This document shows positions 1,368 to 28,690 of a stretch of 51,567 nt of DNA, piece after piece. The DNA is from Bacteroidota bacterium (GTDB lineage Bacteria; Bacteroidota; Bacteroidia; Cytophagales; Amoebophilaceae), in contig JBCCTJ010000001.1 of NCBI GenBank assembly GCA_039198585.1, positions 1 to 51,567 on the forward strand, given 5' to 3'. The position numbers were made by a program, and so were the translations under genes. The first letter of the stretch is position 1, and every line of letters begins with the position of its first letter. The notes beneath the pieces were generated by a model. The model was given only the letters and a program-made list of their open reading frames with translations, made no database searches and had not been told where the DNA came from.

Positions 1368-3470
1368 TTACCTCACAGTGATCGTTAGTGCTCCCTGATC
1401 GTCAAGCCAGTGAAATAGATTTAAACGTTTTTGTTCGGCAGAAATACATGCTCCTAACACAACAACTTGGGGGAGCTTCCCCTGATAGTGCGTCAAGTGC
1501 TGGGCAACCCTAACTGCCTGATGAGAAGAGATGATCCAAATATCGCTGACATAAGGGATAGGTAACTGAGTAGCTAGCAAAGATGGGAGTAGCCAAACAA
1601 TTCGTCTGCCTTGCCAAGTGAGGTAACGAACACCCTCCTCACAGGAAGTAACCAGCAATGGATCATTTACACAGTCAGCCCACCGATACCATTGAACTTG
1701 CTGAGTACGCATAGCAGCCATACTAGGCACCACCGCATGCTGAAAGATAGCATCATGCCGCTCAAGGCTGCCCTCTACTAAAAAGAGACCTTGGGTTCCT
1801 CTATAGCAAGCTATTACCATGTGGGGAGAGAGGCTATAAATAATGATTTTGGCCTGTCGCTGACAACAAGCATAATCATAAGCCCATTTACTCAGAAAAG
1901 CTAAGAGCAAAGCAAATGCAGTCCAAGTGTAATATTTTTTGCGACAGATGATTCTCTGCAAACCCGCTAATAAACTTCCATAAAGTAGGAAGATTGTGCT
2001 CAAAGGCCAATAAATAGCATCGATGTAAGCAGCAGGAAGCGACCGAATAAGCCGCAGAGCAGCATGTATGCTTGTCAATAATTTGACAAGCAAAGCAATA
2101 AGCCATCGATGGAGTAACCCCAATGAGCAAGAAAAATTACTCAGTAAGCTGATGAATAGTAGAGGAGTAAGTAAGGGAACGACCAGTGAGTTAGCAAGCC
2201 AGCTATAGAGAGGTATTCCATGAAAATAATAAAGAGTCAAAGGAAGTGTGCCTATCTGTATAGTCAATGATAAGACAATGAGCTGCCACCATGCACGCAG
2301 CCACGGATGATGAGGTAAATAGCTATTCGCAAGCAGCGGCACATAGAGGGCAATCATCGAGGCTACGGCTATAAAAGATAGCTGAAAGCTCACACTGAAA
2401 AGTAAGTAAGGATTGTAAAGCAATAAGATCAGCGCAGTAAAAGCTAAGATATTGGTCGGTATGATATCACGTTCTAGCCACTTGCCTAGCTGATAGAAAA
2501 ACAACATCACCATAGCACGCAATATAGGAGGAGCTAAGCCTGTAATCAAAGAATAACCTAGTAGAGCAGTCCATGTAATCCTCAGCTGGTATTGCATGAG
2601 GCAAGGCAAAAGAAGGCTCAGCCAGTAGATTAGCAGTAACAAAAGATAGTAGAGCAAGCCTACATGCAGCCCAGAAACAGCTAGGATATGCATCACACCT
2701 GTCTCAGTATAAAGAGCTTTTATTTCTTCATTGAGCTCAAGACGATTTCCCCATAGCATCGCTACAACAACAGCTGCTATATCAGGATCTTCGATGCTTT
2801 TTTGTATGATATTTGTCATTTTTTGCCTCCATAGATGAAGCCATCCAAGCAGAAAAACCTTAGGGGAGGAAGAGATGATCATCCACTGCTTAGTGGATAA
2901 ATGATGCTGGTGAGCAATCCCTTTGCTTTGCCAGGCAAGGGCCCAGTTGGTCATATAAGGATTGCGGTTTGGTACAACAGAAGTAGGAGCACCTTGGATG
3001 CGTAATCGCTGACCATACGCCATACGCTTAGAAGCACCCCAGCCACTCATAGCTATTTTCCCAGAAGCTTTTTGCCACTCCCCATCTATTTTGACCTGTT
3101 TGACAAGCAGTGTAGTCCTGTAATGACGACGACGCATGATCACTGGCGCCACAATCACTGCCTCATACTCCTCCATTCTAGGAAGGCAATGGACAAAGTG
3201 ATCTTGCTGCTCGAAAGGATCTTGACGAGCTAGCAAATAGTAGCCGCCAGCAAAAAGTGTACATAGCATACAGATCAAGGCAAGGATGCGATAGCAGGGC
3301 TTATACAAAGAGAGTACTACTTGTATGAAAAAGAGACTTCCCAAGCAATACCAACTGATCAGCCGATAGCCAGGCAAGCAGTAAGCAGTGATAATGCCCA
3401 TCATATAGCTAGCAAGTAAGGGGAAAAAGGGAGTACGCCACCGGGAATAGTCAAAAAAAGAAAGGATCAT
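1368..3470 (-). CDS. comEC: ComEC/Rec2 family DNA internalisation channel protein
   Basis: 700-aa polytopic membrane protein with the hallmark motif HILAVSGLHVGLL and the typical N-terminal DUF4131-like region. Confidence 0.85.
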   Translation of the reverse strand: MILSFFDYSRWRTPFFPLLASYMMGIITAYCLPGYRLISWYCLGSLFFIQVVLSLYKPCYRILALICMLCTLFAGGYYLLARQDPFEQQDHFVHCLPRMEEYEAVIVAPVIMRRRHYRTTLLVKQVKIDGEWQKASGKIAMSGWGASKRMAYGQRLRIQGAPTSVVPNRNPYMTNWALAWQSKGIAHQHHLSTKQWMIISSSPKVFLLGWLHLWRQKMTNIIQKSIEDPDIAAVVVAMLWGNRLELNEEIKALYTETGVMHILAVSGLHVGLLYYLLLLLIYWLSLLLPCLMQYQLRITWTALLGYSLITGLAPPILRAMVMLFFYQLGKWLERDIIPTNILAFTALILLLYNPYLLFSVSFQLSFIAVASMIALYVPLLANSYLPHHPWLRAWWQLIVLSLTIQIGTLPLTLYYFHGIPLYSWLANSLVVPLLTPLLFISLLSNFSCSLGLLHRWLIALLVKLLTSIHAALRLIRSLPAAYIDAIYWPLSTIFLLYGSLLAGLQRIICRKKYYTWTAFALLLAFLSKWAYDYACCQRQAKIIIYSLSPHMVIACYRGTQGLFLVEGSLERHDAIFQHAVVPSMAAMRTQQVQWYRWADCVNDPLLVTSCEEGVRYLTWQGRRIVWLLPSLLATQLPIPYVSDIWIISSHQAVRVAQHLTHYQGKLPQVVVLGACISAEQKRLNLFHWLDDQGALTITVR

Positions 3471-3508
3471 TTGTTTATTATTGTATGATTATAACAATAA
3501 TAAACAAA
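3470..3508. repeat. Perfect 15-bp inverted repeat (hairpin, 9-nt loop) abutting the comEC start codon
   Basis: tttgtttattattgt (3470-3484), loop atgattata, acaataataaacaaa (3494-3508). It lies 60 nt downstream of the stop of the 3569-6259 gene and overlaps the last base of the comEC ATG (3468-3470 on the minus strand). Confidence 0.6.
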
Positions 3509-3568
3509 TATGATCAATTAAGATGCTATACTGCGTACTACTTCTACCAAGCCACAGTGAAAGAGATG

Positions 3569-6259
3569 CTAGGCGCTTAACTTACTAGCACGCCTATTTT
3601 TGCTGAACCAAGAAGTTACGTATCGGGTAAAAGTAGGCAATAATAAATCGATTATTTGGATCCCAAAAGCACCGATCCCGAACCCCCAAATAAGCAATAA
3701 GAAAAATTGATAATAGGTATTTTTTGGAAGATTGGTATCTTTTTCATCTGCATGAGTAGTATGTAAAGCAGCTTGAACGAGATCATCAGTAGATAGTTCG
3801 ACTGGATGCTGAGTAACCTGAAGGTTTATAGGCTGTTTTTTATGAAGTATGCTCGGCTCGATGACCTCAATAAGCTCGCCAATGGTAGCAGTAACGCGTT
3901 CCATGATCTGATTCTCTCCTACAATGTAGACCTCTTGATCTTGTATTTGGTGAGTAATATGCAGTTGTACAATCTGCTTAGGACGATACTGATCATGCAT
4001 CAAAGTAAGTACTTGTTCCAACTTTGTACTGCCTGGCAGCCACCCTATTTCAACACTAGTAGGATATTCGGGAGCATCAGCAGCATATTCCATGAAAACA
4101 GTGACATGGTAGTATTGAATGTTGGGCTGCTTAGGCTTGGCTCCCGAAGGAGCAGCCGATACTGAAGGATTGCTTTGATTTTTCAATCTTTCTTCAGCCT
4201 CTTTTTTTTTGAATAAATGTTGCTGATACTCTTCTTTGAGCTTACTGATTATAGCATCTTTTTCTTGGACAGCAGCATTCATGTTTTGTATTACTTTTTC
4301 TTGCTGGTGGATAGTTATATCTTTTTTCGCAATAATAGATTGTTCATTTTTGTCTACTAATACAGTATTTTTTTCTTCTAAAGCTCTCACTTTTAATTTT
4401 AATGTTTCTTTTTCTATTGATTGTTGAGTAATCAATGTTTTGTTTTTTTGCAACTCATCCGTTAATTTTCTGATCTGCTTCTTATGTTGGCTATTGAGTT
4501 CCTTAGTATTTTTTTGAAGCTCCCATTCAAGCTTATTCTTTCCTTCTTGCTTTTTCAATTGTTTTTCGTTCTTTTGTATTTCCTGCATTTTTTTCTGTAC
4601 ATTATTTACAATCTCTTCTTGAATTGAAATAAAGACTTTCTCATTGAGCTGATCATTGAATAATAATCCACTTTCAACATTCCATGCTGCATTATATCCT
4701 TGCCTAAAAGCTTCTTCAAAGCCTTTTTGACAAGCAGCTTGTCTGATTTGATTCATAATCCGATCTTGATTTTCTTTATCTAACCAAGGCTGACTTTCCA
4801 AGTATAAGCCTAACGGCGTAATCATCAAAAACCGAAATTGATGCTCTTTTGCTAGATCCTTAAACTTGTCTTGTTCTTCATTTCCTTTGTCTTGACCTTG
4901 ATCATATGCGTATTGTGAAAAAGCTTCTTTGAATACGCTTTTGTATAGGTTTAAGAGACGATTAAGTTCCTTTTTTTGTTCAGCTTCATCTTTCTTTTTC
5001 ATAGCAAGATTAGCTAATGTCGTGACTAGCTCTTGATCTGTCACAAACTTACCTGCACGCATCTTTCCCCACGCTGCACTGGCCAAAATATATTGATTAT
5101 CTGATCTTTCTCGTTTCAAGTTATTATAATGGATTACTTCATCTAGTGAATCTGTACTTGGTGCTCTGAGCACAGTAGGAGTATACTGTATGAGGTCATA
5201 ATCTTTTTCCAGGGGCATAACGTTAGTGTTACCAAGTTCATCGAGGGAACTAGGATCAAAAATATTGGTTTTCCTCCTTTGTATTACTGGAGTGCGATTA
5301 CTTGCAATGTTCCAATTATCTTGGCTATCACCTTGATTATTTGCACTAAATATCTCTTGATAACTTTCAGCCTGCTCTTCAAGTAGTGCTATCTTATTTG
5401 TTAACTGCTTGTTTTTGCTATTAACATCACTTAGGGCATATTTTAGCTGAGTTATTTCCCAAGAAAGTTCTTTTTGTTTTTTTTCTAATGTCTCTTTTTG
5501 ATGCTGAAGTTGAACATGGGAATTTAGTCGAGCAAGTGCTTCTTCTTTCATTTTTTCTGAACTGCTTAGGGCTTTTTTAAGATTTTTCACCTTGTTATTG
5601 AGCATACCTACTTGTCCTTCTAATATTTCTTGTAAGTTCTCTGATTGTTTACTTTCAGGCTCATTAATCAGCTTATGGACTTGAGCGACTAGACGATCCG
5701 CTAGATCTGAATTCTTTGTTTCTAGTTCTTCTATTTGTTTTTTTTGTTGTAAAAACCGTGCTTGATTTTGCTTGTATTCAGTAGCAAGTAGTTGATATTG
5801 TTTTTTTGCCAACTCCAAACTTTGCTCAACTTGTATATAATTATCCAAAGTGATATAAGTCTTACTAATGTAAGACTTAAGCTTATTTTTTAAATTTTCT
5901 GAAAAATTTTTTAAATCAGCAATATCAATATCTGAGAACTCTTCTTGAGGAAAAATTTCTTGCAAAATAGAGATTACTTGCTGATTCGTCTGAGTTTGGA
6001 TCTGAGTTTGGAAAAGATTTTGCCATTCATTATTTGAACCTATACTTTTATTTTCATATCCTTGCTCCTCATAGGAATCAGAAAGGTTATTGAACACAAC
6101 AGTGTTCGTATCACTTGGATCATCTGACCCACTGAGTGAAGTAGCAGGAGCTATGAAGAGCAGACCCAAAAAAGCGAATTGAGTAAAAAAGAGGGAAAAA
6201 CTACGACACGGAATTTTGAGTTTAGCTAAGAGCAAGGATGTATAGTTAATAATTTTCAT
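3569..6259 (-). CDS. Large (896 aa) secreted or tail-anchored coiled-coil protein, function unknown
   Basis: N-terminal hydrophobic signal (FAFLGLLFIAPATS), several hundred residues of Lys/Glu/Gln-rich heptad-like sequence, a compact C-terminal globular region and a terminal TM (FFLLLIWGFGIGAFGIQIIDLLL). Confidence 0.7.
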   Translation of the reverse strand: MKIINYTSLLLAKLKIPCRSFSLFFTQFAFLGLLFIAPATSLSGSDDPSDTNTVVFNNLSDSYEEQGYENKSIGSNNEWQNLFQTQIQTQTNQQVISILQEIFPQEEFSDIDIADLKNFSENLKNKLKSYISKTYITLDNYIQVEQSLELAKKQYQLLATEYKQNQARFLQQKKQIEELETKNSDLADRLVAQVHKLINEPESKQSENLQEILEGQVGMLNNKVKNLKKALSSSEKMKEEALARLNSHVQLQHQKETLEKKQKELSWEITQLKYALSDVNSKNKQLTNKIALLEEQAESYQEIFSANNQGDSQDNWNIASNRTPVIQRRKTNIFDPSSLDELGNTNVMPLEKDYDLIQYTPTVLRAPSTDSLDEVIHYNNLKRERSDNQYILASAAWGKMRAGKFVTDQELVTTLANLAMKKKDEAEQKKELNRLLNLYKSVFKEAFSQYAYDQGQDKGNEEQDKFKDLAKEHQFRFLMITPLGLYLESQPWLDKENQDRIMNQIRQAACQKGFEEAFRQGYNAAWNVESGLLFNDQLNEKVFISIQEEIVNNVQKKMQEIQKNEKQLKKQEGKNKLEWELQKNTKELNSQHKKQIRKLTDELQKNKTLITQQSIEKETLKLKVRALEEKNTVLVDKNEQSIIAKKDITIHQQEKVIQNMNAAVQEKDAIISKLKEEYQQHLFKKKEAEERLKNQSNPSVSAAPSGAKPKQPNIQYYHVTVFMEYAADAPEYPTSVEIGWLPGSTKLEQVLTLMHDQYRPKQIVQLHITHQIQDQEVYIVGENQIMERVTATIGELIEVIEPSILHKKQPINLQVTQHPVELSTDDLVQAALHTTHADEKDTNLPKNTYYQFFLLLIWGFGIGAFGIQIIDLLLPTFTRYVTSWFSKNRRASKLSA

Positions 6260-6361
6260 ATTAATTGTCTCACAAAATTACAAGATTTGACTTAGTAAAG
6301 CAAAAGTTTAGTGAAAAGTTGAAGATTACTTATCAAAAATTGTAAGTTGCACCTTAAACTT

Positions 6362-7228
6362 ATGGCAACCAATAAAAGCACCCTCAATCGCATTAATACA
6401 GTAACGCTCACTAAGCAGATCACTCAGACCATGAAAATGGTAGCTGTCTCTAGCTTGGAAAAGCAAAAAAAAGAAGCAGCAATTATTGAGATGTACTACC
6501 ACTCGCTACAAGGGCTTGTATCTCAACTGCATCCCACTTCATCCTCCTTCGATTTACCGTACATCAAGGTAAGAAAAGTCGAGAGAGTATTACTCATAGT
6601 ATTAACAACTGACAAAGGGCTTTGTGGCTCCTTCGGGAGTAGTGTATTGAGTAGTTTGACCCATGAGCATGAACAGCTCCGCAAGGAGAAAAAAGATGTC
6701 ATGCTGCTTCCTATAGGTAAAAAGGGAGTAGCATTTTGTCAGCATCATGCGCTGCCCTACTTAGGGTTATATGGTCAAAATAATAACAAAAGTAGCTGGT
6801 CAGCGAGGGTCAAAGAAATCAGCGATCTTGTGCTCAATGCTTACATAGAGGAGAAGTACGATGAAGTTATCTGTCTCTATCAATCACATGCCGTAAGTCC
6901 TAGTCGGGACAATGTAACAGTAGAGAAACTCTTGCCAGTGAGTATGGCAGCACAAAGTAGGAGTAGCCATACTAGCTATATCATCTACGAGCCCAACCCA
7001 GTAGTAGTACATGAGGCAATCTATCCCCAGCTAGTGCGCACTAAACTGGCCCACATGATAGCTGTAGGGCAAACAGCTGAGCAAAAGGCAAGGATGATGG
7101 CTATGCATCAAGCTACGGACAATGCCGAAAGACTACTCAAAGAGTTAAAAACCCTCTATAATCGCACAAGGCAAGCCAATATTACGGGAGAGATCAATGA
7201 AATCAATGCGGGCACGTTATCACGCTAA
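6362..7228 (+). CDS. atpG: F0F1 ATP synthase subunit gamma
   Basis: The N-terminus MATNKSTLNRINTVTLTKQITQTMKMVAVSSL and the C-terminus RQANITGEINEINAGT match AtpG signatures. The ORF track starts at TTG 6347; the ATG at 6362 is the likelier start. Confidence 0.85.
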   Translation: MATNKSTLNRINTVTLTKQITQTMKMVAVSSLEKQKKEAAIIEMYYHSLQGLVSQLHPTSSSFDLPYIKVRKVERVLLIVLTTDKGLCGSFGSSVLSSLTHEHEQLRKEKKDVMLLPIGKKGVAFCQHHALPYLGLYGQNNNKSSWSARVKEISDLVLNAYIEEKYDEVICLYQSHAVSPSRDNVTVEKLLPVSMAAQSRSSHTSYIIYEPNPVVVHEAIYPQLVRTKLAHMIAVGQTAEQKARMMAMHQATDNAERLLKELKTLYNRTRQANITGEINEINAGTLSR

Positions 7229-7239
7229 TATAGGCAATC

Positions 7240-7581
7240 ATGAAAAGAGAACGTATCAAAAAGTTAGTGCATACAACGCTTAGTCGTTACTTTCAAAAGC
7301 ATCTACAAGGTTTGATGACAACTATCACGGAGATATCCATCACACCTAGATTGGATATCGTGAAAGTATATGTAAGCTTCCTATCGCCCAAGCAGGATAT
7401 CGACCAGGAGAAGTTTTTACAAGAGTCGGTAATCCCTCACACGTGGGATATTAAAAAAGAACTGGCCTATCAACTCAAGAATGCTGTACGGACAGTACCG
7501 AAAGATATACGTTTTTATGTAGATAGTACCCCAGAGAAAGCAGCTGCCATGGAAAGCTTATTGCGTACTTTACGCAACTAA
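7240..7581 (+). CDS. rbfA: Ribosome-binding factor A
   Basis: 113 aa. The pattern ITEISITPRLDIVKVYVSFL matches the RbfA KH-like fold signature, and the size is typical. Confidence 0.8.
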   Translation: MKRERIKKLVHTTLSRYFQKHLQGLMTTITEISITPRLDIVKVYVSFLSPKQDIDQEKFLQESVIPHTWDIKKELAYQLKNAVRTVPKDIRFYVDSTPEKAAAMESLLRTLRN

Positions 7582-7583
7582 TA

Positions 7584-7831
7584 GGTCGCGGGGGAGTCAG
7601 AAGTAGAGAGTTTTTTGCTCAAAACCACTTCATTTGAGTTCTAGACAAGGTTTTCCCTTGATACTCATAAACAAAAAAGAGTGAAATTCATCGCTTTTTG
7701 CTACTTTTTTTCATTTTCAGCGCAATTTTTACAGTTGGACGCAACTATTTTTATCTGAAAAATATTAACAGAGTCGCTCCTACAGTTACTTTTTTAATGA
7801 TTGCTACAGTTTCGTATTATACTGAGTGCCC
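7584..7831 (+). mobile_element. MITE-like repeat, copy 1
   Basis: Alignable by eye to 29601-29836. Shared blocks include gtcagaagtagaga, aaaaaagag..aaa.ttc, attttcag, gcaactatttttatct and ttaatgattgc.a.agtttcg. The ends are imperfect inverted repeats (ggggagtcag / actgagtgccc). Confidence 0.7.
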
Positions 7832-7896
7832 TTAGGTAAAAAAGGGCTATTCCAAATAGCTGCTACCAACTATGGATGATCGATATCAGCTTCCTT

Positions 7897-8589
7897 TTAT
7901 CCCTCTTCTTCATCTATCTTAAGTAAGTGAGGAGCGCGAGCCCGTGTGCGTGCAATGCTTTGTGTGAGCTTCCACTCATCAATTTGTTGCGCATTGCCTG
8001 TAAAGAGCACAGTAGGTACTGTTAAATCTCTGAAAGAAGCAGGACGTGTGTAAATAGGAGGTTCCAAAAGTCCATCTTGAAAAGAATCATTCAATGCTGA
8101 AGAAGCATCTGAGAGCACACCAGGTATCAGTCTTACTACAGCATCCACAACAATGGCAGCAGCCAGCTCTCCTCCTGAAATGACATACTCGCCTATACTA
8201 ACTTCGTGGGTAATAAAGTGTTCTCGTATCCTTTCATCCACACCTTTATAATGTCCACAAAGTAGCATTAAGTTTTGATCTAGGGAAAGCCTATTGGCCA
8301 TAGACTGGGTCAGTTTCTCTCCATCAGGAGCCATATAAATAATCTTGTCATAGTTTCGTGCTGCCTGCAATGCCTCAATACATCGCACAATAGGCTCCAC
8401 CATGAGCACCATACCAGCGCCGCCACCATAGGCATAATCGTCAATTTGGGCATGTTTGCCTAGTCCATGAGAACGTAGATCATGAATATGAATAGCTACT
8501 TGCTGCTTTTCAATAGCTCGTTTGACAATAGAATGACTAAAAGGACCTGAGAGAAGGCCGGGCTGACAAGTAATGATATCTACTCTCAT
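7897..8589 (-). CDS. trmD: tRNA (guanine37-N1)-methyltransferase
   Basis: MRVDIITCQPGLLSGPF..., DDYAYGGGAGMVL and GHYKGVDERI are TrmD signatures. Confidence 0.9.
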   Translation of the reverse strand: MRVDIITCQPGLLSGPFSHSIVKRAIEKQQVAIHIHDLRSHGLGKHAQIDDYAYGGGAGMVLMVEPIVRCIEALQAARNYDKIIYMAPDGEKLTQSMANRLSLDQNLMLLCGHYKGVDERIREHFITHEVSIGEYVISGGELAAAIVVDAVVRLIPGVLSDASSALNDSFQDGLLEPPIYTRPASFRDLTVPTVLFTGNAQQIDEWKLTQSIARTRARAPHLLKIDEEEG

Positions 8590-8613
8590 AGTCTATAGTG
8601 ATTCAAGAAAATG

Positions 8614-8687
8614 TAGCGAAGGAGAGACTTGAACTCTCGACCTCTGGGTTATGAATCCAGTGCTCTAACCAACTGAGCTACCTCGCC
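8614..8687 (-). tRNA. tRNA with CAT anticodon (elongator Met or lysidine-modified Ile2 type; not initiator-like)
   Basis: The reverse complement GGCGAGGTAGCTCAGTTGGTTAGAGCACTGGATTCATAACCCAGAGGTCGAGAGTTCAAGTCTCTCCTTCGCTA folds as a cloverleaf. It has a 7-bp acceptor stem with G-U pairs and a TTCAAGT T-loop. It lacks a C1-A72 mismatch. Confidence 0.85.
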
Positions 8688-8862
8688 AAGCCACAGCAAT
8701 AATATCACTTCTCATGCAAAATAGTAAGTTGGGAGCTCAAATTACTCTTGGCTGCTGGATATAGAGGTTCCTCGTTTTAATAAGAGTCAGTTAATCTAGA
8801 GGAAATTTTTGTGCTAATAAGGGAAAAATAGTTAGATTTGCCCATTAATAAAATAGTAAATT

Positions 8863-9207
8863 ATGGTTTCTATTATTATCAGTACAGTAGCTTTAGGTTT
8901 GGTAGTCATTTTGCTTGTCTTGGTAACACTGCTCCAAAAGCCCAAAGATGAAGGGCAAACACCACTCGGTAGTACTGGTCTTGACAACTTGGTAGGGGTA
9001 GCGCAAACTTCTACATTATTAGAAAAAATTACGTATTTTTTAGCGTTTCTTTTAGTAGCGCTTGTTTTAACCACATCCTATCTAGTCAAGCAGGAATATG
9101 GCCGTGAAGAAGTGCATGTTACCTCCAAGTATTTAAAGCAATACGAACAAGAGCTTCCTATAACAACAGAATCTTCTACGCCGGACCATACAACAACTGA
9201 AAAATAG
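8863..9207 (+). CDS. secG: Preprotein translocase subunit SecG
   Basis: Two-TM small protein with LLVLVTLLQKPKDEG...G..LLEKITYFLAFLL, the SecG pattern. Confidence 0.75.
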   Translation: MVSIIISTVALGLVVILLVLVTLLQKPKDEGQTPLGSTGLDNLVGVAQTSTLLEKITYFLAFLLVALVLTTSYLVKQEYGREEVHVTSKYLKQYEQELPITTESSTPDHTTTEK

Positions 9208-9338
9208 CTCTGCCGAGATAAGCAAGAGAAGTCTATATGTATTGGCTTACTCTTTTTCTGAGCTGAGGATAGAAAATCATTAAAAAAAATAGATTATCTC
9301 CAAGCAGATTTAGCAGGATCGTGTAAAGTGTCAAAAAA

Positions 9339-9545
9339 GGAGCAGGCAGGAGAATGCAAAAATGTATAAATCATTAAAAAAAGCTTTATAGGGAAATCTA
9401 TTAACATCCTTCTAGATAAAAATTGTAAAAGTAAGGAAAATCGGTGAATTTTACCTCTTTTTTGCTTATGGACATGAACGGAAACCCTTCTGTAGAACCC
9501 ACATGGGATGTTTGTAAACAAAACGTCTCTACTTCTGACTGCCCC
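9339..9545 (-). mobile_element. MITE-like repeat, copy 2 (inverted orientation, shorter)
   Basis: The reverse complement starts ggggcagtcagaagtagagacgtttt. It contains aaaaaagaggtaaaattc, tttttatctagaa, ttaatagatt and ttttaatgatt in the same order as copies 1 and 3, and it ends ...ctcctgcctgctcc. Confidence 0.65.
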
Positions 9546-9737
9546 AAAAAAAGATAAGTTGCAGCCAAGCAAGATCATCTTCTTTGGATAGGTAAAGCAA
9601 AGATAAGTTGTTTAGTTTTTGCATTTTTAATGAGTCAAGCGAGCAATCCACATCTTATAGAGATTCAGCCAGTCGTCTATTCATTGCTATTTGTAGGCAA
9701 GTTGCACGAGTGATCAGCATCGTGTTTGAGCTGACTA

Positions 9738-10808
9738 TTATTGGGAATTTCGCTTGTAGTAACGTGGATCTGGCTCCAGATAAGTGCCAAAAAGTCTATC
9801 CATCAAGCCTCCTGAATAGTTACCTCCTCCCACTTGATGATGCTCTTCATGTCTTGCATTGAAGTTAGAGTGAGTAAAATTAGTATGGAACATCGAAATA
9901 GTTAGCCAGAGTAATAATAGCTTCTTAGAAGATCTTGTGTAATACATCCCCAGTACAGAAGGAGCGATATTGACGAATATATGCTCCAGAGGATGGCAAT
10001 AGAAAGCAGCAGGTCCTATAGGAGTAGTCCACTCATGATGTACTTTGTGCAAGCAATAAAGTCTTTTATTATGCAAAAGTCGATGTAAGGCATAAAATAA
10101 TACTTCATTAGCTAGATAAATTCCAAACAATCGCAAGAAGCTAACATACCATGTATTATCACATTCATTTTTAGGAAAATCATAATCTTTAGGAAAGAAA
10201 AAAGAAATGAGTGGATAACTTACCAGCTGATTGATCATAACCTGGACAAGCGTACCTACTGTAGAGGGTGGAGATGGCTGCATTGAGTTGAGCTTATATT
10301 TGTCAAACAGTTGAAAATAATCAGTAATAACAAAAAAAATGGAAGATCCCCAAAATGTAATCAGATGAAAGACATAAATATCAATATCTTCTACAAAAGT
10401 TTCCCAAGAATTAATTTGAAAATTAGGCCATTTTTTAGAAAAGTACATCCACGCTATTGTAGCACTCACAAGTACCACATCAGCCAGTATTCTATTGCTA
10501 ACTAGAGGGATCACTGGGTAGTTTTTGGGTAGCCGATTCGGCCTAGGGAATTTCGGAGGGTTTTTTTGCTGCTTGCTTAGTTCTTTTTGAGTCATGCTCG
10601 CTTGCGTAGATAAAGAGTCTATTGGGTTACCTCCATGTGCAGTTAAAGAAGAAAAACAAGTAATGATGCCTAGGATCATCATGCTACTTAGTAGTATATT
10701 TTTCTTGTAAAGAGTACTAGTAAAAGAAAATCTTTTAGGAAATTGAATGAATATTCTCTTTTCTTCTTGAATAAGATCGACAAAAGAGCAAGTTGATTGA
10801 TAGATCAT
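9738..10808 (-). CDS. Fatty acid hydroxylase / sterol desaturase superfamily protein with an N-terminal anchored extension
   Basis: Histidine boxes HRLLH, HKVHH and HEEHH with interspersed TM segments. A roughly 110-aa N-terminal extension carries a hydrophobic segment and the Pro/Lys-rich stretch KNPPKFPRPNRLPKNYP. Confidence 0.75.
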   Translation of the reverse strand: MIYQSTCSFVDLIQEEKRIFIQFPKRFSFTSTLYKKNILLSSMMILGIITCFSSLTAHGGNPIDSLSTQASMTQKELSKQQKNPPKFPRPNRLPKNYPVIPLVSNRILADVVLVSATIAWMYFSKKWPNFQINSWETFVEDIDIYVFHLITFWGSSIFFVITDYFQLFDKYKLNSMQPSPPSTVGTLVQVMINQLVSYPLISFFFPKDYDFPKNECDNTWYVSFLRLFGIYLANEVLFYALHRLLHNKRLYCLHKVHHEWTTPIGPAAFYCHPLEHIFVNIAPSVLGMYYTRSSKKLLLLWLTISMFHTNFTHSNFNARHEEHHQVGGGNYSGGLMDRLFGTYLEPDPRYYKRNSQ

Positions 10809-11089
10809 AATATGTGTAATGCAAATGGTAAAAATTTCTAATGCATGAGCATGTAGTTTGCAAAGCTAATTATCTGCTCCTAAAATTAAGGATTTCTCTT
10901 CAATTTTTTTCATAACAAAGTGTAACACAAGTACAAACCACACACCCTCCTTTTATTCAGGAAAAAAGTGTAGGATTCTTAGCTTAGAATGTCCAATTTA
11001 TGAGCCCAATTATCCTATTGTTAATAAAAAACATAGTATTGCTATAGAGCAAGAGTACAGTAGTCTCTAATTTTTTACACTAAACTAAA

Positions 11090-12067
11090 ATGAAAACAAC
11101 TAACAAAGTCAATCTTCCTCCTTTTATAATCAATGCACTTGCTAAAAACAGTCAAGAGCTGGAAGAGCACAAGAATGACGAGATGAGGAATGTAAACTGG
11201 GGCAAAAAACTATCCGGTATTCCACTAGCTTGGCAAAAAACAATGGGAGAAGATGTAAGAGTAGCCGTACTAGATACGGGGATAGACAGTAATCATCCTG
11301 ACTTAAAAGATGTCATTGCAGAGGTACGCGATTTTACAGGAGATGGCATTGAAGATATGAGTGGGCATGGTACTCACTGTGCAGGAGTAATTGCAGGACA
11401 GCCTATACAAAGTGAGTTCGTAGGTGTAGCTCCTAAAGCAGAGTTGATCATCGGAAAAGTATTAGATAACAAAGGACGTGGTAATGGAAAGTGGATCTGT
11501 GAGGCATTAGAGTGGCTTTTAGAAGGTGTAAAATCGGGATCAGATTATGCACCCGATATTATTTCCATGTCTCTAGGAGGTTATTTCCGATCGAAGAAAC
11601 TTTTTAAGGTCATTCATGAACTTACTGCCCTAGGTGTGCATATTGTCATTGCAGCAGGCAATGAAGGATCAGCTTATCGGAATAGCATTGGTGCACCTGC
11701 CTGTTATAGTTGTGGCATTGTGGTAGGAGCTTGTGATTCGAATGGAAATCCTTCAGGATTTTCTTCGCGGGGAGGAGAGATATTTTGTTTAGCTCCAGGA
11801 GATGAAATTTGGTCTACTTATCCTGGAGGAGGTTATGCTTGCTTGAGTGGCACTTCGATGGCAACCCCTTTTATTGCAGGATACGCAGCGTTGATTGTGG
11901 CTTATCACAAAATGAATCCCAATACAAAAACACCGATTCATAATGTCCATGACCTGAAGCTTCACTTCTTTAAGGATTTAACCCATCCTGGATGGCATAC
12001 GAACAATGGAGGCTATGGAGTATTACAAATATTTAAGCCTTTTTTTGACGTAAATCCTTTTGACTAA
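11090..12067 (+). CDS. Subtilisin-like serine protease (peptidase S8), cytoplasmic type
   Basis: Catalytic motifs VAVLDTGID (Asp), HGTHCAG (His), AAGNEG (oxyanion Asn) and GTSMATP (Ser) are all present. There is no signal peptide and no propeptide. The short N-terminal tail contains NLPPFI. Confidence 0.9.
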   Translation: MKTTNKVNLPPFIINALAKNSQELEEHKNDEMRNVNWGKKLSGIPLAWQKTMGEDVRVAVLDTGIDSNHPDLKDVIAEVRDFTGDGIEDMSGHGTHCAGVIAGQPIQSEFVGVAPKAELIIGKVLDNKGRGNGKWICEALEWLLEGVKSGSDYAPDIISMSLGGYFRSKKLFKVIHELTALGVHIVIAAGNEGSAYRNSIGAPACYSCGIVVGACDSNGNPSGFSSRGGEIFCLAPGDEIWSTYPGGGYACLSGTSMATPFIAGYAALIVAYHKMNPNTKTPIHNVHDLKLHFFKDLTHPGWHTNNGGYGVLQIFKPFFDVNPFD

Positions 12068-12087
12068 ACCATCAAAACTAGTAACAT

Positions 12088-12711
12088 ATGATCGTAAAAA
12101 AAATCGGTTTAATAACTAATGATCGTATTGATGAAGAAAAAGTAAGATCAGCAAGTGGAAAAAATATCAAGATCATCACTATAGCTCCATTATCTTATCT
12201 AAATGAAATGGTAGATAAGATTCTGATAGAGGAGGTAGATGCACTGATAGTAGATTATGATCTTAGAAATGATCATCATACTTTATACCAAGGGGCAGAG
12301 GTCATTAGAAGAATAGAAGAACAAAAGGAGGGTTTCCCACTCTTTTTAATAGTGGATGATCAGGGAATCGAACAAGCGGAAAAAGAGGTAGATAATGTAC
12401 ATCTAGTTTATGGAAAAGAGAGAGTTTTTACCAACGTAGGTCGCTTTTTAGAGCGAATTAGTAGACAAATCGAAAAAGAGAAGCAGAAAATACAAGCGCA
12501 AGAAGCAAGATTATTACAATTGATGCATCGAATTCATAGCCTGTCTGCACAAGAAGAGAGTGAAATAAACGCACTGAATTTTAGCCTAGAAAAAGGGATA
12601 AATAAGCGAAGGGCTAAGGATTTGAGTGCTATTACTTCATCCAGCCAGAAGAAACTCGCTAATATTCTTGCGAAAACAGATGAAATTCTTCATACGCTGA
12701 ACAAGTCATAA
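12088..12711 (+). CDS. Receiver-like alpha/beta domain fused to a coiled coil (putative adaptor or sensor)
   Basis: The N-terminal ~100 aa have an alternating beta/alpha pattern with acidic positions GLITNDR, ALIVDYDL and PLFLIVDD. The C-terminal half is heptad-rich (EKEKQKIQAQEARLLQLMHRIHSL...). The gene starts 20 nt after the S8 stop and overlaps the next gene through TAATG. Confidence 0.5.
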   Translation: MIVKKIGLITNDRIDEEKVRSASGKNIKIITIAPLSYLNEMVDKILIEEVDALIVDYDLRNDHHTLYQGAEVIRRIEEQKEGFPLFLIVDDQGIEQAEKEVDNVHLVYGKERVFTNVGRFLERISRQIEKEKQKIQAQEARLLQLMHRIHSLSAQEESEINALNFSLEKGINKRRAKDLSAITSSSQKKLANILAKTDEILHTLNKS

Positions 12712-13283
12712 TGTACTCTTTTAGAAGCAAAGCACCTAGGAGAACCTATGTAGGCCCTGAGCTCAGTCACTATAGAAAATATAAAAAACAACTGCGTAGT
12801 GATTTTAATGGACGTTGCGGATATACAGACTGTCGAGATTTTTGGTTTGGAGGAGTTTCTACCTTTCAAATTGATCACTTTAAACCGAAGTCGAAGTACC
12901 CAGACCTAACGACAACCTATGACAACCTAGTATATTCTTGTTCTTTTGCAAACAATGCCAAAGGAAGCGACTATAACGATGAGCTTTACTTAGATCCCTG
13001 CAAGATTGACTATAATGATCACTTTGAGCGAGATGATTATGGACAAATCCTCCCAAAAACTAGTTCGCAAGCAGCGCAATATATGTATAAAAAAATGAAG
13101 CTTTATCTAAAGCGGTATGGGATCATTTGGACCTTAGATCAGCTACAAGAAAAAATCAAAGCTGTTCATAGAGCGATTGAAAAAGTCAAAGAAGAGGAAA
13201 AGAGAAAGGTTTTACTCCAGCTGAGTTATGACCTTTCGCAATCTTTACAAGAATACCTTGACTATCTTGCTCTTAATCAGTAA
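12711..13283 (+). CDS. HNH (His-Me finger) endonuclease, TIGR02646/PtuB-like pattern, with a C-terminal coiled coil
   Basis: RCGYTDC...FQIDHFKPKSKYPDL...YDNLVYSCSFANNAKG is followed by a helical Lys/Glu-rich tail. The start ATG at 12711-12713 overlaps the upstream TAA at 12709-12711. Confidence 0.7.
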   Translation: MYSFRSKAPRRTYVGPELSHYRKYKKQLRSDFNGRCGYTDCRDFWFGGVSTFQIDHFKPKSKYPDLTTTYDNLVYSCSFANNAKGSDYNDELYLDPCKIDYNDHFERDDYGQILPKTSSQAAQYMYKKMKLYLKRYGIIWTLDQLQEKIKAVHRAIEKVKEEEKRKVLLQLSYDLSQSLQEYLDYLALNQ

Positions 13284-13483: not shown

Positions 13484-14539
13484 ATGATTAACTACATAGC
13501 CACATCGCTTCAAAAAAAACTAGGCAACTGGGGATATCCAGTATCTATCGCTAACTATAAGATTGTACTATTCGCTATCACAACACTACTAATTGGTATT
13601 ACTAGCTATTTACTGGTAACCTACTTCTTTAGCCTACTATCAAAAAAATATGATAGTATAAGAAAAGTAGAGAGAATCAAACGTCGGATCACTTTTTTGG
13701 TTACTCTTATTTATTTTTTTCAAGGAGTATCTATGCTACCATTAAGCGTCGTGAGTGGTCTCTTAAGTCAGATTATTTGGTTGCTTCACTTTGTAGCTTT
13801 TAGTCTCATGATACTGATTGCCAATCAGCTAGTAGATATCATATTTGGTGTCTTAAATGATCAGTCTCAGCAAGAGTATGGTAATCAGTCAGGTATTCTA
13901 AGTATTTTGAAGAGTATAGCGAAAATAAGTACATTCAGCTTAATCATTATACTAGGGCCTAGGTTCTTTGTTATCTATGATCTATCCAGATGGCTTTCTT
14001 CTTTTACTATAGGAGCTGGTACACTAACTGCCATTGCGGCTTTAGCTTCTAAAGATTTAATTAGTAATTTTTTTGGTGCTTTAGTGATCATGATCGGTAA
14101 GCCTTTTAAAGTGGGCGACTGGATTATTATCAATAAACTAGCAGGTCGTGTTGTTAAGATTGATATTCGATCTACAGAGTTACGTACGGCACTTGGTACT
14201 TCCATTCATATTCCGAATGGGATGTTTGCTAGTAAAGATTTGGAAAATTATGGGCACGTATCATCAAGCCCTATTCAAATAACTATTGCGCTCATTACAA
14301 TTACAGAACAAACACTTGCTACTTTTTTAAAGGATATCCAAGATGTAATCAAGCAGTATAAGTTTCTAGTACATAAGCATAGCCATATTTATATGACCCA
14401 TGTAACTTCTAAGAACGCTAAAATTAATTTTCACTTAGCTTTTCAAGCAACTAAGACAGTAGATATCATCAAGCACACGCAGTATTTTTTGCATGAACTG
14501 CAAAGAATAGCTAAGGAAAGGAAAGTAGTTATTGAATAA
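13484..14539 (+). CDS. Mechanosensitive ion channel (MscS family)
   Basis: Multi-TM N-terminus and the conserved pore/beta-domain motif FGALVIMIGKPFKVGDWIIIN..GRVVKIDIRSTELRT..G..IHIPNG. Confidence 0.85.
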   Translation: MINYIATSLQKKLGNWGYPVSIANYKIVLFAITTLLIGITSYLLVTYFFSLLSKKYDSIRKVERIKRRITFLVTLIYFFQGVSMLPLSVVSGLLSQIIWLLHFVAFSLMILIANQLVDIIFGVLNDQSQQEYGNQSGILSILKSIAKISTFSLIIILGPRFFVIYDLSRWLSSFTIGAGTLTAIAALASKDLISNFFGALVIMIGKPFKVGDWIIINKLAGRVVKIDIRSTELRTALGTSIHIPNGMFASKDLENYGHVSSSPIQITIALITITEQTLATFLKDIQDVIKQYKFLVHKHSHIYMTHVTSKNAKINFHLAFQATKTVDIIKHTQYFLHELQRIAKERKVVIE

Positions 14540-19326: not shown

Positions 19327-20463
19327 ATGTTCAAATTTTTTACTCTAAGTTTCTTTTTGCTAAGCTATCTATTTGATGGAGGAGATACATTAAATTGTAC
19401 TAGTAACGTTGTGGACAATAGTGGTGTAGTAGGCGCTAAGGCAGCTTCAGTTATGAAAACCGATGGAACCATATATGCTACTTATTTTGATTTCACAAGC
19501 GGAGACCAAAAAACATGGTTTGTCAATTGTCAAGATGAAGACTGTATTACAAATACTAAGACCAATTTAAACTCACCCCCAGGAGTACTAGAAGCAGGTA
19601 ACAGCCTTGGAATCAAATCAGATGGATATGCGATCATAGCTTCCCAAGTTAGATTTGCTTCACGCTTCAATCGCTTACAAGTAACTGAATGTCATGATGC
19701 AGATTGTTCCTCTAATACCAAAACTCCCATAGGAAGTCTTTATGGTGGAAGCTATATCTCTTTAGCCATGAGAAGTGATAACACAGCAGTATTAACTAAT
19801 TATAACATTGTGTTTGGAAAAACATTAGATATTGTTTCCTGCTTAAATACAGCTTGTTCACTTAATGATGAAGTTACCGTGGATAGTACCATAGAAACAG
19901 GTAGACATGCTGCTCTTCGACTTGATAGTAATGGTAATCCAGTTATTGTCTATCGAGGTCCAGGTGCTAATAATTTAAGATATGCAGTATGCGGAAATAG
20001 CGATTGTACATCAGGCAATATCATTAAAACAATCCCTGGTACAGCTAATCTAGGTGACTATAACTCTTTCTTCTTAGATAACAATAATGTTGCTACTATC
20101 ACAACCTATGATTTCAGCTTATATGAATTTGTTGTTGTCTTTTGTGCTAATAGCTTATGTACCTCAGCAACTACTACTAGCGTAGGTGGCCCGTTTAGTG
20201 GACAATTTACCTCGGTAGTATCAGATAGTACCAACTCAGGCCAAGCTGCTGCTACCTATGTAAACTTGTATGAAGACAAACTTAACATAGCACAGTGTGA
20301 TAGTTCAGATTGTACAAACAATACCATTAGTATAGTAGATAATTCCACATTCAGCGGATCATTCAACACATTGCATCAAAGCCCTGTTACTGACAATTTC
20401 GTTGTTTCTTATCATATTCAAGAAGAAGACAATGAATCTTTCAACGTAGCTGTTTGCTCATAA
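19327..20463 (+). CDS. Secreted repeat protein, probable 7-bladed beta-propeller with one Cys pair per blade
   Basis: Signal peptide present. Six internal C-x4-C motifs lie about 50 aa apart (NCQDEDC, ECHDADC, SCLNTAC, VCGNSDC, FCANSLC, QCDSSDC). A half motif sits at each terminus (LNCTSN at the N-terminus, VAVCS at the C-terminus). Confidence 0.6.
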   Translation: MFKFFTLSFFLLSYLFDGGDTLNCTSNVVDNSGVVGAKAASVMKTDGTIYATYFDFTSGDQKTWFVNCQDEDCITNTKTNLNSPPGVLEAGNSLGIKSDGYAIIASQVRFASRFNRLQVTECHDADCSSNTKTPIGSLYGGSYISLAMRSDNTAVLTNYNIVFGKTLDIVSCLNTACSLNDEVTVDSTIETGRHAALRLDSNGNPVIVYRGPGANNLRYAVCGNSDCTSGNIIKTIPGTANLGDYNSFFLDNNNVATITTYDFSLYEFVVVFCANSLCTSATTTSVGGPFSGQFTSVVSDSTNSGQAAATYVNLYEDKLNIAQCDSSDCTNNTISIVDNSTFSGSFNTLHQSPVTDNFVVSYHIQEEDNESFNVAVCS

Positions 20464-27406: not shown

Positions 27407-28690
27407 TCAGGAAATTTTTTTAATCATAAGATCTTCAATCAGCTTATTTGTTTCTTTTGATTGACCTTGATAGTTATGTAATAAACCTGATCGACATACT
27501 GGACATTTACAGCCAATGCCATCAATGAATTTGAGGTTTCCTTCTGAGTTTTTTTTAATGATACAATCTCTACAGAAAAGATGACTACAATCAGGATTAT
27601 TGCCAGGAAAACGACATGCTTGATACTCTGGCTTATCTTCGAACTTACCATATATATTGTCCAAGCAAATGGTACAACTTACATTCGTGTTAGGTGCCCA
27701 ACAATTGGGGCACTTAGTAGCTTGATCATCATATTCTTCGTTACAGTGAATACAACTTGTTGTCTTATTCTGCATTTCTTGCTTCTTTTCATCTTCTACT
27801 TTTTGAATATGATTAGCAATTAAGTTGTTTGAATCATTGAATTTGATTAAAAATGTTTTATTGTTTATGGCTCTAACGTTTACGCCTCTAGCTGAGCTTG
27901 TATACTGTCTTACAGTAAGATTAATGACTAGTTTATTATTTTGACTAGCATCTTTAATAATAGATTCTTGCTGGGCGGCTCTGAAGACTCTCAGTTTAAA
28001 AATAAAGTTTTCTGATTCAGGGCTTGTTTTTTCCAATATTCCTTTAAAATTTATTTGAAGACTCGCAAATCTCACACGTATATTAGAGCTCTTGTCTATG
28101 GATATCAAGAATTCTAAATTATTTACCGTTCTTCTAGCTATTTTGCCATTTTTCCTAAAAAAAGAACGTAATCGGAGCTGAGCTAATAAGTACTTTTTGT
28201 TAATGTGTATATGTAGTAAACTACTATCCTCCTTGGTGACATGGGTATTTAATTTGACTTGAATATATTCTTCTAGATTCACAATTTTACCATCTACTTC
28301 GATATTATTAATTTCTAGTTTTTGCTCCGGTAAAGGCTTAGGTACAGGTAGAGAAGCAGTATTATCCTTATTAGAAAGTATATTTAAGTTTTGTATCAGC
28401 TGGTGATTATTTTTGTTTAATATTTCAATGATTACTATAATAGTACTGACTATAAAAGTAGTGATAGAGACTAGCAAAATAGTATTAATGGCTTGTCGTT
28501 GTTTACGGATCTTCATGTTTTTTCTTTGTTTTTTATCAGAAAATTCACGATAGAAATTAACAGGTCGGTGAATATTCCTATCTTGATAAAAATTGTATCT
28601 TGCATCACTACTTCTCAGGTAAAAAGATAGATATACAAGCGCTAAGAGTAGACTAAAATTTTTTTTAACAAACACTTGATAGAGTAACAT
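27407..28690 (-). CDS. Membrane-anchored protein with a zinc ribbon and a canonical RING-HC (C3HC4) finger (putative E3 ubiquitin ligase-like effector)
   Basis: Signal-like N-terminus plus a TM (INTILLVSITTFIVSTIIVIIEIL). The C-terminus has CIHC-x10-CPNC, then CTIC-x25-CSH-x2-C-x2-C-x19-CPVC, which satisfies the RING consensus spacing. Confidence 0.75.
   Translation of the reverse strand: MLLYQVFVKKNFSLLLALVYLSFYLRSSDARYNFYQDRNIHRPVNFYREFSDKKQRKNMKIRKQRQAINTILLVSITTFIVSTIIVIIEILNKNNHQLIQNLNILSNKDNTASLPVPKPLPEQKLEINNIEVDGKIVNLEEYIQVKLNTHVTKEDSSLLHIHINKKYLLAQLRLRSFFRKNGKIARRTVNNLEFLISIDKSSNIRVRFASLQINFKGILEKTSPESENFIFKLRVFRAAQQESIIKDASQNNKLVINLTVRQYTSSARGVNVRAINNKTFLIKFNDSNNLIANHIQKVEDEKKQEMQNKTTSCIHCNEEYDDQATKCPNCWAPNTNVSCTICLDNIYGKFEDKPEYQACRFPGNNPDCSHLFCRDCIIKKNSEGNLKFIDGIGCKCPVCRSGLLHNYQGQSKETNKLIEDLMIKKIS

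Follow-up and report, generated by a model that had tools for sequence, protein, structure and literature searches.

What brings a protease, a receiver-like protein and a nuclease together in three tightly packed genes? The question is raised by a gene trio in a 51,567-nucleotide (nt) stretch of DNA from a Bacteroidota bacterium (GenBank assembly GCA_039198585.1, contig JBCCTJ010000001.1, positions 1 to 51,567; this whole stretch is called the window below). A preliminary description of the window, made from the sequence alone, had proposed that the three open reading frames (ORFs) form an undescribed conflict system that lacks an ATPase. Its account of the layout is reproduced when the sequence is read again: the coordinates and strand agree, a 20-nt spacer separates the TAA of ORF1 from the start of ORF2, and ORF2 and ORF3 meet at a TAATG junction.

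11090-12067, + strand: ORF1, S8 protease, 325 amino acids (aa), ORF read from the sequence
12088-12711, + strand: ORF2, receiver fold and helical region, 207 aa, ORF read from the sequence
12709-12713, + strand: TAATG stop/start overlap of ORF2 and ORF3, direct sequence reading
12711-13283, + strand: ORF3, PtuB-like/AbrD-like HNH (His-Me finger) nuclease with a helical C-terminal tail, 190 aa

The answer reached here is that the trio very probably owes two of its genes to shared ancestry with the anti-phage system Ambrosia, from whose family it is derived. The explanation that on balance best covers the whole, and that can be held with modest confidence, is a protease-gated nuclease module descended from the Ambrosia-type family: the evolutionary part of this reading is well supported, and beyond it a mechanism and a defence role can be inferred.

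ORF2 had no match at threshold in the curated families of Pfam, PADLOC and NCBIfam, and as a query in a word-indexed search it returned a single relative. ORF3 returned more than 180 full-length homologues (48-78% identity, mostly from Bacteroidota), and ORF2 proved to be 30-33% identical to the receiver (REC) partners of these HNH homologues; a profile search then gave 264 family members. In a locus census, for which one genome per species was scanned and genes were labelled with seed proteins, about 75 of 80 genomic loci with an ORF3 homologue carried a full same-strand operon of the form GHKL/histidine kinase (HK)-REC-HNH-N6-methyltransferase: a large protein of 770-900 aa, an ORF2-like protein of 204-236 aa, an HNH protein of 186-200 aa and an N6-adenine methyltransferase of 530-632 aa. 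The large protein joins an N-terminal MORC/BbrUII-like HATPase_c_3 module to a C-terminal histidine-kinase core. For this HNH subfamily the ancestral partner is an ATPase after all, a GHKL/histidine-kinase protein accompanied by an N6-methyltransferase. These canonical relatives lie in defence islands, with TIR, AbiTii, ThsB, integrase and OLD-family genes alongside.

This operon resembles Ambrosia, a five-gene anti-phage system of Pseudomonas aeruginosa made up of an XRE regulator (AbrR), an N6-adenine methyltransferase (AbrA), a histidine-kinase/HSP90-like ATPase (AbrB), a REC protein (AbrC) and an HNH protein (AbrD), in which AbrB signals through AbrC (bioRxiv 10.1101/2025.09.30.679545). 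Defence needs every one of these genes and is abolished by the D60A substitution in AbrC; the catalytic His and Lys of AbrD were mutated in the same preprint, which describes the system from Gammaproteobacteria only, in 537 instances (bioRxiv 10.1101/2025.09.30.679545). With query sequences taken from Table S1 of that preprint, AbrC aligns end to end with the ORF2-family profile (hhalign 95%, E 3e-8, 195 columns), its phospho-acceptor D60 falling on D56 of the window protein, and a phmmer search with AbrC matched 111 family members (best 3e-12). AbrD matches both the HNH-family profile (hhalign 96.6%, E 6e-10) and ORF3 directly (phmmer 7e-10), and its mutated His and Lys are conserved in the ORF3 family. 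AbrB, finally, is 32% identical (E 2e-48) to the partner kinase of a Flagellimonas operon (L002). These alignments make ORF2 a homologue of AbrC and ORF3 a homologue of AbrD within an Ambrosia-type family, and that family is far more widespread than its published distribution in Gammaproteobacteria.

Several observations fill out the picture of this parent family. Ambrosia-type operons (L006-L085; L002, positions 5073-10287, is another example) are widespread in Bacteroidota and occur in several other phyla, with examples in Morganella (L081), Gilliamella (L066), Methylobacter (L038) and Pyrinomonadaceae (L037). Small HTH_3 genes often lie upstream, as they do at the canonical operons L002 and L004. 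In two loci that at first seemed to have no methyltransferase, its gene lies on the opposite strand right after the HNH gene (L026, 10603-12006, - strand; L034, 10749-12257, - strand); the first product is clearly AbrA-like (E 1e-45), the second matches weakly (E 9e-6), and the family therefore includes at least two methyltransferase types. In L002 the methyltransferase gene is followed by a second HNH gene (10292-10921, 209 aa), unrelated to ORF3, whose product matches the model of a type IV methyl-directed restriction enzyme (6.8e-9).

The nuclease assignment needs some refinement. ORF3 matches Pfam HNH (6.7e-5) and, in PADLOC, PtuB best (5e-21), followed by the retron protein HNH_I-A (2e-14). 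It had been described as a TIGR02646/PtuB-like HNH protein, and the PADLOC match bears out the likeness; the match to TIGR02646 (5e-10, 39.6 bits) falls under the curated cut-off of 52.15, and that to the PtuB model NF041761 reaches 31.4 bits where 150 are asked for. ORF3 is thus PtuB-like but not PtuB. Its solved sequence relatives are PtuB chains only (Septu and retron Ec78; for example, 9vh1, 9l7p and 8ee7), and the similarity is weak (E 0.016-0.08) and spans about 30 residues around the catalytic His. H56, N72, N81, K84 and H104 are invariant in all HNH copies that are linked to an S8 gene, and four of five such copies keep the CxxxxC pair, where L096 has C-C-Y-T-D-C instead. PtuB of retron Eco7 is described as degrading tRNA-Tyr (PMC12673091), and the substrate of ORF3 could for that reason be DNA or RNA.

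What distinguishes the trio from its parent family is most apparent in ORF2, whose two parts were modelled as follows:

12088-12432, + strand: predicted pseudo-receiver (REC-fold) domain of ORF2, aa 1-115 (AlphaFold2, Foldseek)
12433-12708, + strand: helical/coiled-coil region of ORF2, aa 116-207 (AlphaFold2)

The preliminary description had suggested a receiver-like module followed by a long coiled coil, and the AlphaFold2 model agrees (44-sequence alignment; mean predicted local distance difference test score (pLDDT) 70, about 80 in the N-terminal domain). Residues 4-115 adopt a (beta-alpha)5 fold, with the DSSP topology E4-9, H13-22, E27-31, H38-48, E52-56, H69-79, E85-89, H91-100, E107-109, and Foldseek gave 44 matches in the Protein Data Bank (PDB) at E <= 1e-3, mostly REC domains; the top matches are REC domains of response regulators, FrzS among them, with target-normalised template modelling (TM) scores of 0.62-0.76. 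In the model the C-terminal part consists of three long helices (117-150, 154-178 and 184-206) and has no beta strands, so there is no winged-helix hairpin in it; AbrC, for its part, has no Pfam match to domains of the winged helix-turn-helix (wHTH) type. The stop codon of the REC gene overlaps the start of the HNH gene throughout the family (median -11 nt, 81 loci), which fits co-translated partners. Taken together, the overlap and the helical C-terminus of ORF2 suggest that receiver and nuclease are coupled at the protein level, an alternative to the transcriptional wHTH model put forward for Ambrosia.

The fold is retained while the phosphorylation site is not. Among 194 family members the receiver signature is nearly universal (D10 in 191, E11 in 189, D56 in 192, T89 in 190, K110 in 193), and about 126 of 150 representatives clustered at 50% identity read D-[E/D]-D-[T/S]-K at these positions. 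The wholesale exceptions are exactly the S8-linked proteins plus one further protein, P0356:

Window: T-N-D-V-K (T10, N11, D56, V89, K110)
L001: T-Q-G-A-E
L003: S-N-S-A-K
L096: A-S-D-A-K
P0356 (L097): G-K-G-A-I

The acidic pair that binds Mg2+ and the conserved Thr are lost in all four full-length S8-linked copies. The acidic positions that the preliminary description had taken for a receiver site (D12, D58 and D90/D91) are mostly non-canonical, and of the canonical positions the window protein keeps only D56 and K110. The N-terminal domain is thus predicted to be a pseudo-receiver, no longer phosphorylatable in the canonical way. Between the window and L001 the rate of change in this half of ORF2 is also about three times that in the helical half (nonsynonymous substitution rate, dN, 0.36 and 0.12, respectively).

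Three side issues concern ORF2. Some family members carry a JGI label as HPt domains, a candidate that was set aside: across genomes no His in the C-terminal helices is invariant (H stands at position 130 in 40 of 69 sequences and at position 133 in 9 of 69, none aligned in AbrC). The weak match (E 2e-4) of family-profile positions 112-207 (window 12433-12708) to the coiled-coil domain of the plant nucleotide-binding leucine-rich-repeat (NLR) proteins MLA10/MLA13 probably reflects coiled-coil composition, not homology. Lastly, four unusually long representatives (P0260, P0315, P0349 and P0356) were considered as possible Rosetta-stone fusions and contain no HNH or S8 domain; two of them, P0315 (473 aa) and P0349 (494 aa), have the canonical signature and extend at the C-terminus by another 250-290 residues, which are for the most part helical and include a short conserved stretch rich in beta structure.

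The altered receivers belong to a small branch that is defined by the protease. The preliminary description had treated the three genes as one unit, and their homologues do co-occur outside this genome: four further, divergent contigs (L001, L003, L086 and L096) also have S8, REC and HNH genes side by side, a linkage far beyond chance. The order is S8-REC-HNH in the window and L001 and REC-HNH-S8 in L003, L086 and L096, where the S8 gene sits at the position of the methyltransferase gene (L086 is a 1.2-kb contig whose ends cut off its receiver and S8 genes). Identities among the five loci are 46-86% for S8, 55-78% for HNH and 31-65% for REC; between the window and L001, which are 86% identical in S8 and 65% in REC, synonymous sites are saturated (dS), with a dN/dS of about 0.05 in S8 and 0.04 in HNH. 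All three genes are by these comparisons under purifying selection. The five S8 proteins are one another's closest relatives. The next-nearest metagenomic S8 proteins reach at most 40% identity and have TPR, PD-(D/E)XK, deaminase and SPFH neighbours; neither REC nor HNH genes lie beside them, and they do not reveal where the S8 gene came from.

Neighbour-joining trees rooted on AbrD (HNH) and AbrC (REC), with 300 bootstraps, place these loci more precisely. The S8 clade is monophyletic (276/300 for HNH, 293/300 for REC) and nested within the canonical kinase-plus-methylase family (276/300 and 279/300), with the Flagellimonas-type operon as its sister; monophyly together with nesting therefore indicates one derived replacement event. 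No AbrB-type protein or methyltransferase adjoins any of the five S8-linked loci, and in L096 at least 449 bp upstream are non-coding, so no kinase lies there. The window as a whole has no GHKL/kinase homologue (phmmer 1e-5), and neither the window nor any S8-linked locus has a methyltransferase homologue. The trio has also moved as a block, because nothing in the window is related to the gene upstream of it in L001. In sum, the S8 branch has lost the kinase and the methylase, its receiver site has decayed, and it has an S8 protease as its constant third partner. The proposal of an undescribed system without an ATPase therefore stands in part: no ATPase gene is adjacent and the trio has no name, but two of its proteins are homologues of components of a described system.

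A second lineage offers an instructive parallel. L097 (ENA ERZ19650279, a 121-kb contig; positions 6579-8514) holds another kinase-less derivative, consisting of a 130-aa GHKL fragment without the kinase core, the 303-aa degenerate REC protein P0356 and a 200-aa HNH protein, with no methyltransferase. Receiver decay is restricted to kinase-less lineages, and twice independently, once in the S8 clade and once in L097, a decayed phospho-acceptor site coincides with a lost kinase. The L097 trio lies near SocA_Panacea, a DEAD helicase gene and an AAA_15/OLD-TOPRIM gene.

The third partner, ORF1, is as first described a subtilase with its catalytic motifs intact. Peptidase_S8 is its sole Pfam match (6.4e-47, residues 53-279), VAVLDTGID, GHGTHCAG, AAGNEG and GTSMATP are all present, and the catalytic residues are D62, H93, N191 and S256; the motifs are intact in the four full-length orthologues, and L096 departs from the exact AAGNEG string. 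That the protein is of a cytoplasmic type also agrees with the evidence: Pfam finds no Inhibitor_I9 domain in it, and its N-terminus has no hydrophobic core like that of a signal peptide (maximum 11-residue hydropathy 1.38). Among solved structures, intracellular subtilisins match it best (7xr8 with 2.4e-46, then 7y6m, 6f9m, 2x8j, 2wv7 and 2xrm). A short motif in its N-terminal tail may be of particular importance:

11114-11125, + strand: L-P-P-F motif in the N-terminal tail of ORF1 (aa 9-12), candidate autoinhibitory segment

Intracellular subtilisins (ISPs) carry an N-terminal LIPY/F motif that keeps the active site blocked before processing. The NLPPFI tail of ORF1 recalls that motif, as noted at the outset, and L-P-x-[F/Y] is kept in all five S8-linked loci (LPPF, LPPF, LPEF, LPNY and LPNF); it differs from the ISP motif in spacing (the distance to the catalytic Asp is greater by about 10 residues) and in the position of the proline. 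By analogy, the tail would block the active site of ORF1. An AlphaFold2 single-sequence model of ORF1 reached a pLDDT of 38.

How do these proteins compare with known systems? The trio shares two features with Ambrosia: ORF2 is a full-length counterpart of AbrC (REC plus a helical C-terminus, about 207-209 aa), and ORF3 is a counterpart of AbrD, with the REC gene preceding the HNH gene in both. It lacks four: the AbrB kinase/GHKL ATPase, the AbrA methyltransferase, the AbrR regulator and a functional phospho-acceptor site, the receiver site being degenerate, whereas D60 of AbrC is essential. In addition, the constant third gene encodes an S8 protease, which Ambrosia does not have, and the hosts seem Bacteroidota-like, not gammaproteobacterial. 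It is accordingly an Ambrosia-derived variant, not a member.

Septu (PtuA-PtuB) and type I-A retrons (Ec78/Eco7: RT-PtuA-PtuB) share the PtuB-type HNH core, and in them a partner restrains the nuclease until infection; the trio lacks their PtuA ABC/SMC-like ATPase, reverse transcriptase (RT) and non-coding RNA (ncRNA). IetAS, reportedly a pairing of the ATPase IetA with the S8 protease IetS, is likewise a defence system with a cytoplasmic S8 protease at its centre. The match of ORF1 to IetS, however, covers the generic S8 core (residues 44-163, PADLOC 4.7e-10), the score against NF042956 IteS is 20.1 bits where the cut-off is 900, no IetA ATPase is adjacent, and IetS is about 750-800 aa long compared with 325 for ORF1. 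A PADLOC 'subtilase' model (PDLC03014, 5.3e-27) also matches the generic S8 core only. PADLOC thus names no system here, its PtuB, IetS and 'subtilase' models matching parts only. The trio is not Septu, a retron or IetAS, and the combination of S8, REC and HNH is unnamed in PADLOC 2.0, NCBIfam 20 and Pfam and was not found described in the literature searched.

Looser parallels exist for the individual parts. Bacillus ISPs (7xr8, 2x8j, 2wv7, 2xrm) are of similar size to ORF1, with a short N-terminal extension, no I9 domain and no secretion signal, but they work alone in housekeeping and do not share an operon with a nuclease. Detocs (DtcA-DtcB-DtcC) is said to be a defensive two-component system whose effector is a PNP ATP nucleosidase; the parent family of the trio likewise uses a histidine kinase and a receiver to control an immune effector, but the families and the effector are different and the trio has no phosphorelay at all. 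FrzS, finally, has a receiver domain followed by a long coiled coil, and its pseudo-receivers (2i6f, 2nt4) have the receiver fold without the canonical phosphorylation residues; ORF2 is related to it by fold only, with no detectable sequence relationship, and FrzS acts in motility and has no nuclease beside it.

Given these parts, the following mechanism could underlie the trio. ORF2 and ORF3 would form a complex through their helical regions that keeps the nuclease in check, and the S8 protease would be held latent by its conserved L-P-x-[F/Y] tail. A trigger such as infection would release the protease, and ORF2 would then be cleaved, for example by removal of the inhibitory pseudo-receiver (in many response regulators, removal of the receiver domain frees the output domain). 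Proteolysis would in this way replace phosphorylation in switching on the HNH nuclease. The outcome would be growth arrest or abortive infection rather than restriction, which is the less likely of the two because there is no methyltransferase and hence no self-marking. The confidence that these steps deserve is not uniform: a conflict or defence role for the trio is somewhat favoured, cleavage of the adaptor by the protease is offered as a tentative proposal, and the same doubt applies to the broader idea of a rewired immune two-component pathway, in which cleavage by a dedicated intracellular subtilisin instead of aspartate phosphorylation licenses a PtuB-like HNH nuclease.

A number of findings weigh against this explanation. 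First, the evidence that couples the S8 protease to ORF2 and ORF3 consists entirely of gene linkage and sequence, and no natural REC-HNH or REC-S8 fusion occurs among the family representatives. Second, the authors of the Ambrosia study prefer transcriptional (wHTH) control by AbrC over a protein complex (bioRxiv 10.1101/2025.09.30.679545). Third, the window protein retains D56 and K110, with D12 nearby, and residual phosphorylation of this copy is possible; in L003, moreover, a generic membrane histidine kinase is encoded immediately upstream. Fourth, the trio in the window is surrounded by housekeeping genes, with no defence island, and no relatives were found on viral contigs (plasmid matches and one phage match reach only 33-42% identity). 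Finally, the S8 clade is very rare: five loci are known from a library that stands for about 15 billion proteins, an exhaustive profile search through 1.84 billion representatives added no close members beyond L096, and a lineage-specific role outside defence is possible.

Some of these findings are what a selfish toxin-antitoxin or addiction module would predict, in which the HNH protein is the toxin, ORF2 a labile antitoxin and the S8 protein the protease that degrades it, such that loss of the module kills the cell. The trio is a solitary insertion among housekeeping genes not only in the window but also in L003 and L096, it moves as a block (as the unrelated upstream gene of L001 indicates), stop/start overlaps like that of ORF2 and ORF3 are typical of toxin-antitoxin pairs, and there is no methyltransferase for self/non-self discrimination. 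Descent from a validated anti-phage system whose canonical relatives reside in defence islands makes this an unlikely account nonetheless, and the two readings overlap, as many defence systems are formally toxin-antitoxin-like.

The direction of control could also be the reverse of the one proposed: the REC-like/HNH pair would sense or bind nucleic acid, and the S8 protease would be the killing effector, degrading host or phage proteins, much as in defence systems whose effector is a protease. The protease is the best conserved of the three proteins between the window and L001 (86% identity, dN/dS 0.05), in L003, L086 and L096 its gene has replaced that of the methyltransferase at the same genomic position, and S8 proteases do occur in known defence systems (the IetS and 'subtilase' matches, 4.7e-10 and 5.3e-27, are of this kind). 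Yet the catalytic residues of the HNH protein are strictly kept in every copy under strong purifying selection, which implies that nuclease activity still matters, and an ISP-like enzyme with an N-terminal tail resembles a regulated processing protease more than a bulk degrader. Reversed wiring is on these grounds a little less likely still than addiction.

A third possibility, that ORF2 still functions as a receiver and is phosphorylated by a kinase encoded elsewhere, in trans, with the S8 protease as an accessory or backup effector, is improbable. It draws on the position of D56 at the end of beta-3 and of K110 after beta-5 in the window protein, with D12 close by, and on L003, where a 285-aa membrane-anchored histidine kinase (3421-4278) with complete H, N, G1 and G2 boxes is encoded 72 nt upstream of the pseudo-receiver. 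The closest orthologue of ORF2, that of L001 (65% identity), nevertheless has G at the acceptor and E at the Lys position, the L003 protein has S at the acceptor despite the adjoining kinase, and the Mg2+-binding pair and Thr are absent from four of four full-length copies. The L003 kinase was considered as a truncated AbrB and rejected as a recognisable remnant, for the two have no more than generic ATP-lid motifs in common (BLASTP 6e-4 over 53 aa; profile 16 bits). That the trio is a decaying Ambrosia-type remnant beside an unrelated protease gene, with no joint function, is very unlikely: the trio lacks two essential parent genes and has a degenerate receiver signature, but five divergent contigs hold the three families side by side, in two gene orders, the frames are intact with dS saturated and dN/dS low, catalytic residues are intact throughout, and the five S8 proteins are mutually closest (46-86%) while the next S8 proteins (at most 40%) lie in unrelated contexts. 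Derivation from the Ambrosia-type family as a protease-gated nuclease module is for these reasons preferred to all four.

The immediate surroundings of the trio in the window are these, the flanks being, as first described, an opposite-strand hydroxylase gene and an MscS-type gene (Pfam agrees on both):

9738-10808, - strand: FA_hydroxylase gene, flanking (Pfam 2.3e-15)
10809-11089, + strand: upstream intergenic region, presumed promoter of the trio
13484-14539: MscS-type channel gene, flanking (Pfam 2.7e-20)

In the 281 bp 5' of ORF1 no ORF exceeds 42 aa, and an AbrR-like regulator gene is absent. A sigma-70 consensus scan of the upstream region gave 15 sites against a shuffled expectation of 10.1 +/- 3.5, a consensus of doubtful relevance here, and a terminator scan at the trio found none. 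The window is otherwise ordinary chromosome, with genes for ComEC, ATP synthase gamma, GluRS, GatB, AlaRS, TrmD, RsmG and DnaX, and Rfam finds four tRNAs only in it, with no retron ncRNA. Amid these highly conserved housekeeping genes lie five ORFs without a Pfam match at 1e-5 (256-1329, 3569-6259, 19327-20463, 27407-28690 and 38551-40422; 357, 895, 378, 426 and 623 aa), and the source organism seems divergent. The G+C content of the ORF1 gene is 0.41, compared with a window mean of 0.36 and 0.35 for ORF2, while its third-position G+C (0.30) is not elevated; the higher overall value is compatible with acquisition from elsewhere.

If the proposed explanation is true, the trio would be the first described exchange of a kinase for a protease in bacterial defence and the first S8-gated nuclease module. 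Rarity (five loci) is the main limit on its significance: its ecological impact is probably small, and its function is read from sequence. Within the family, the gene overlap, the helical C-terminus of ORF2 and the spread through Bacteroidota make a case for control of the nuclease at the protein level alongside the transcriptional model for Ambrosia, and the trio provides a compact three-gene test bed for the control of a PtuB-like nuclease by a receiver fold. The S8 clade and L097 would show, twice independently, that the active site of a receiver decays once its kinase is gone. More broadly, immune modularity would extend to the level of signalling chemistry, with the same receiver-nuclease core driven either by a phosphorelay or by a protease.

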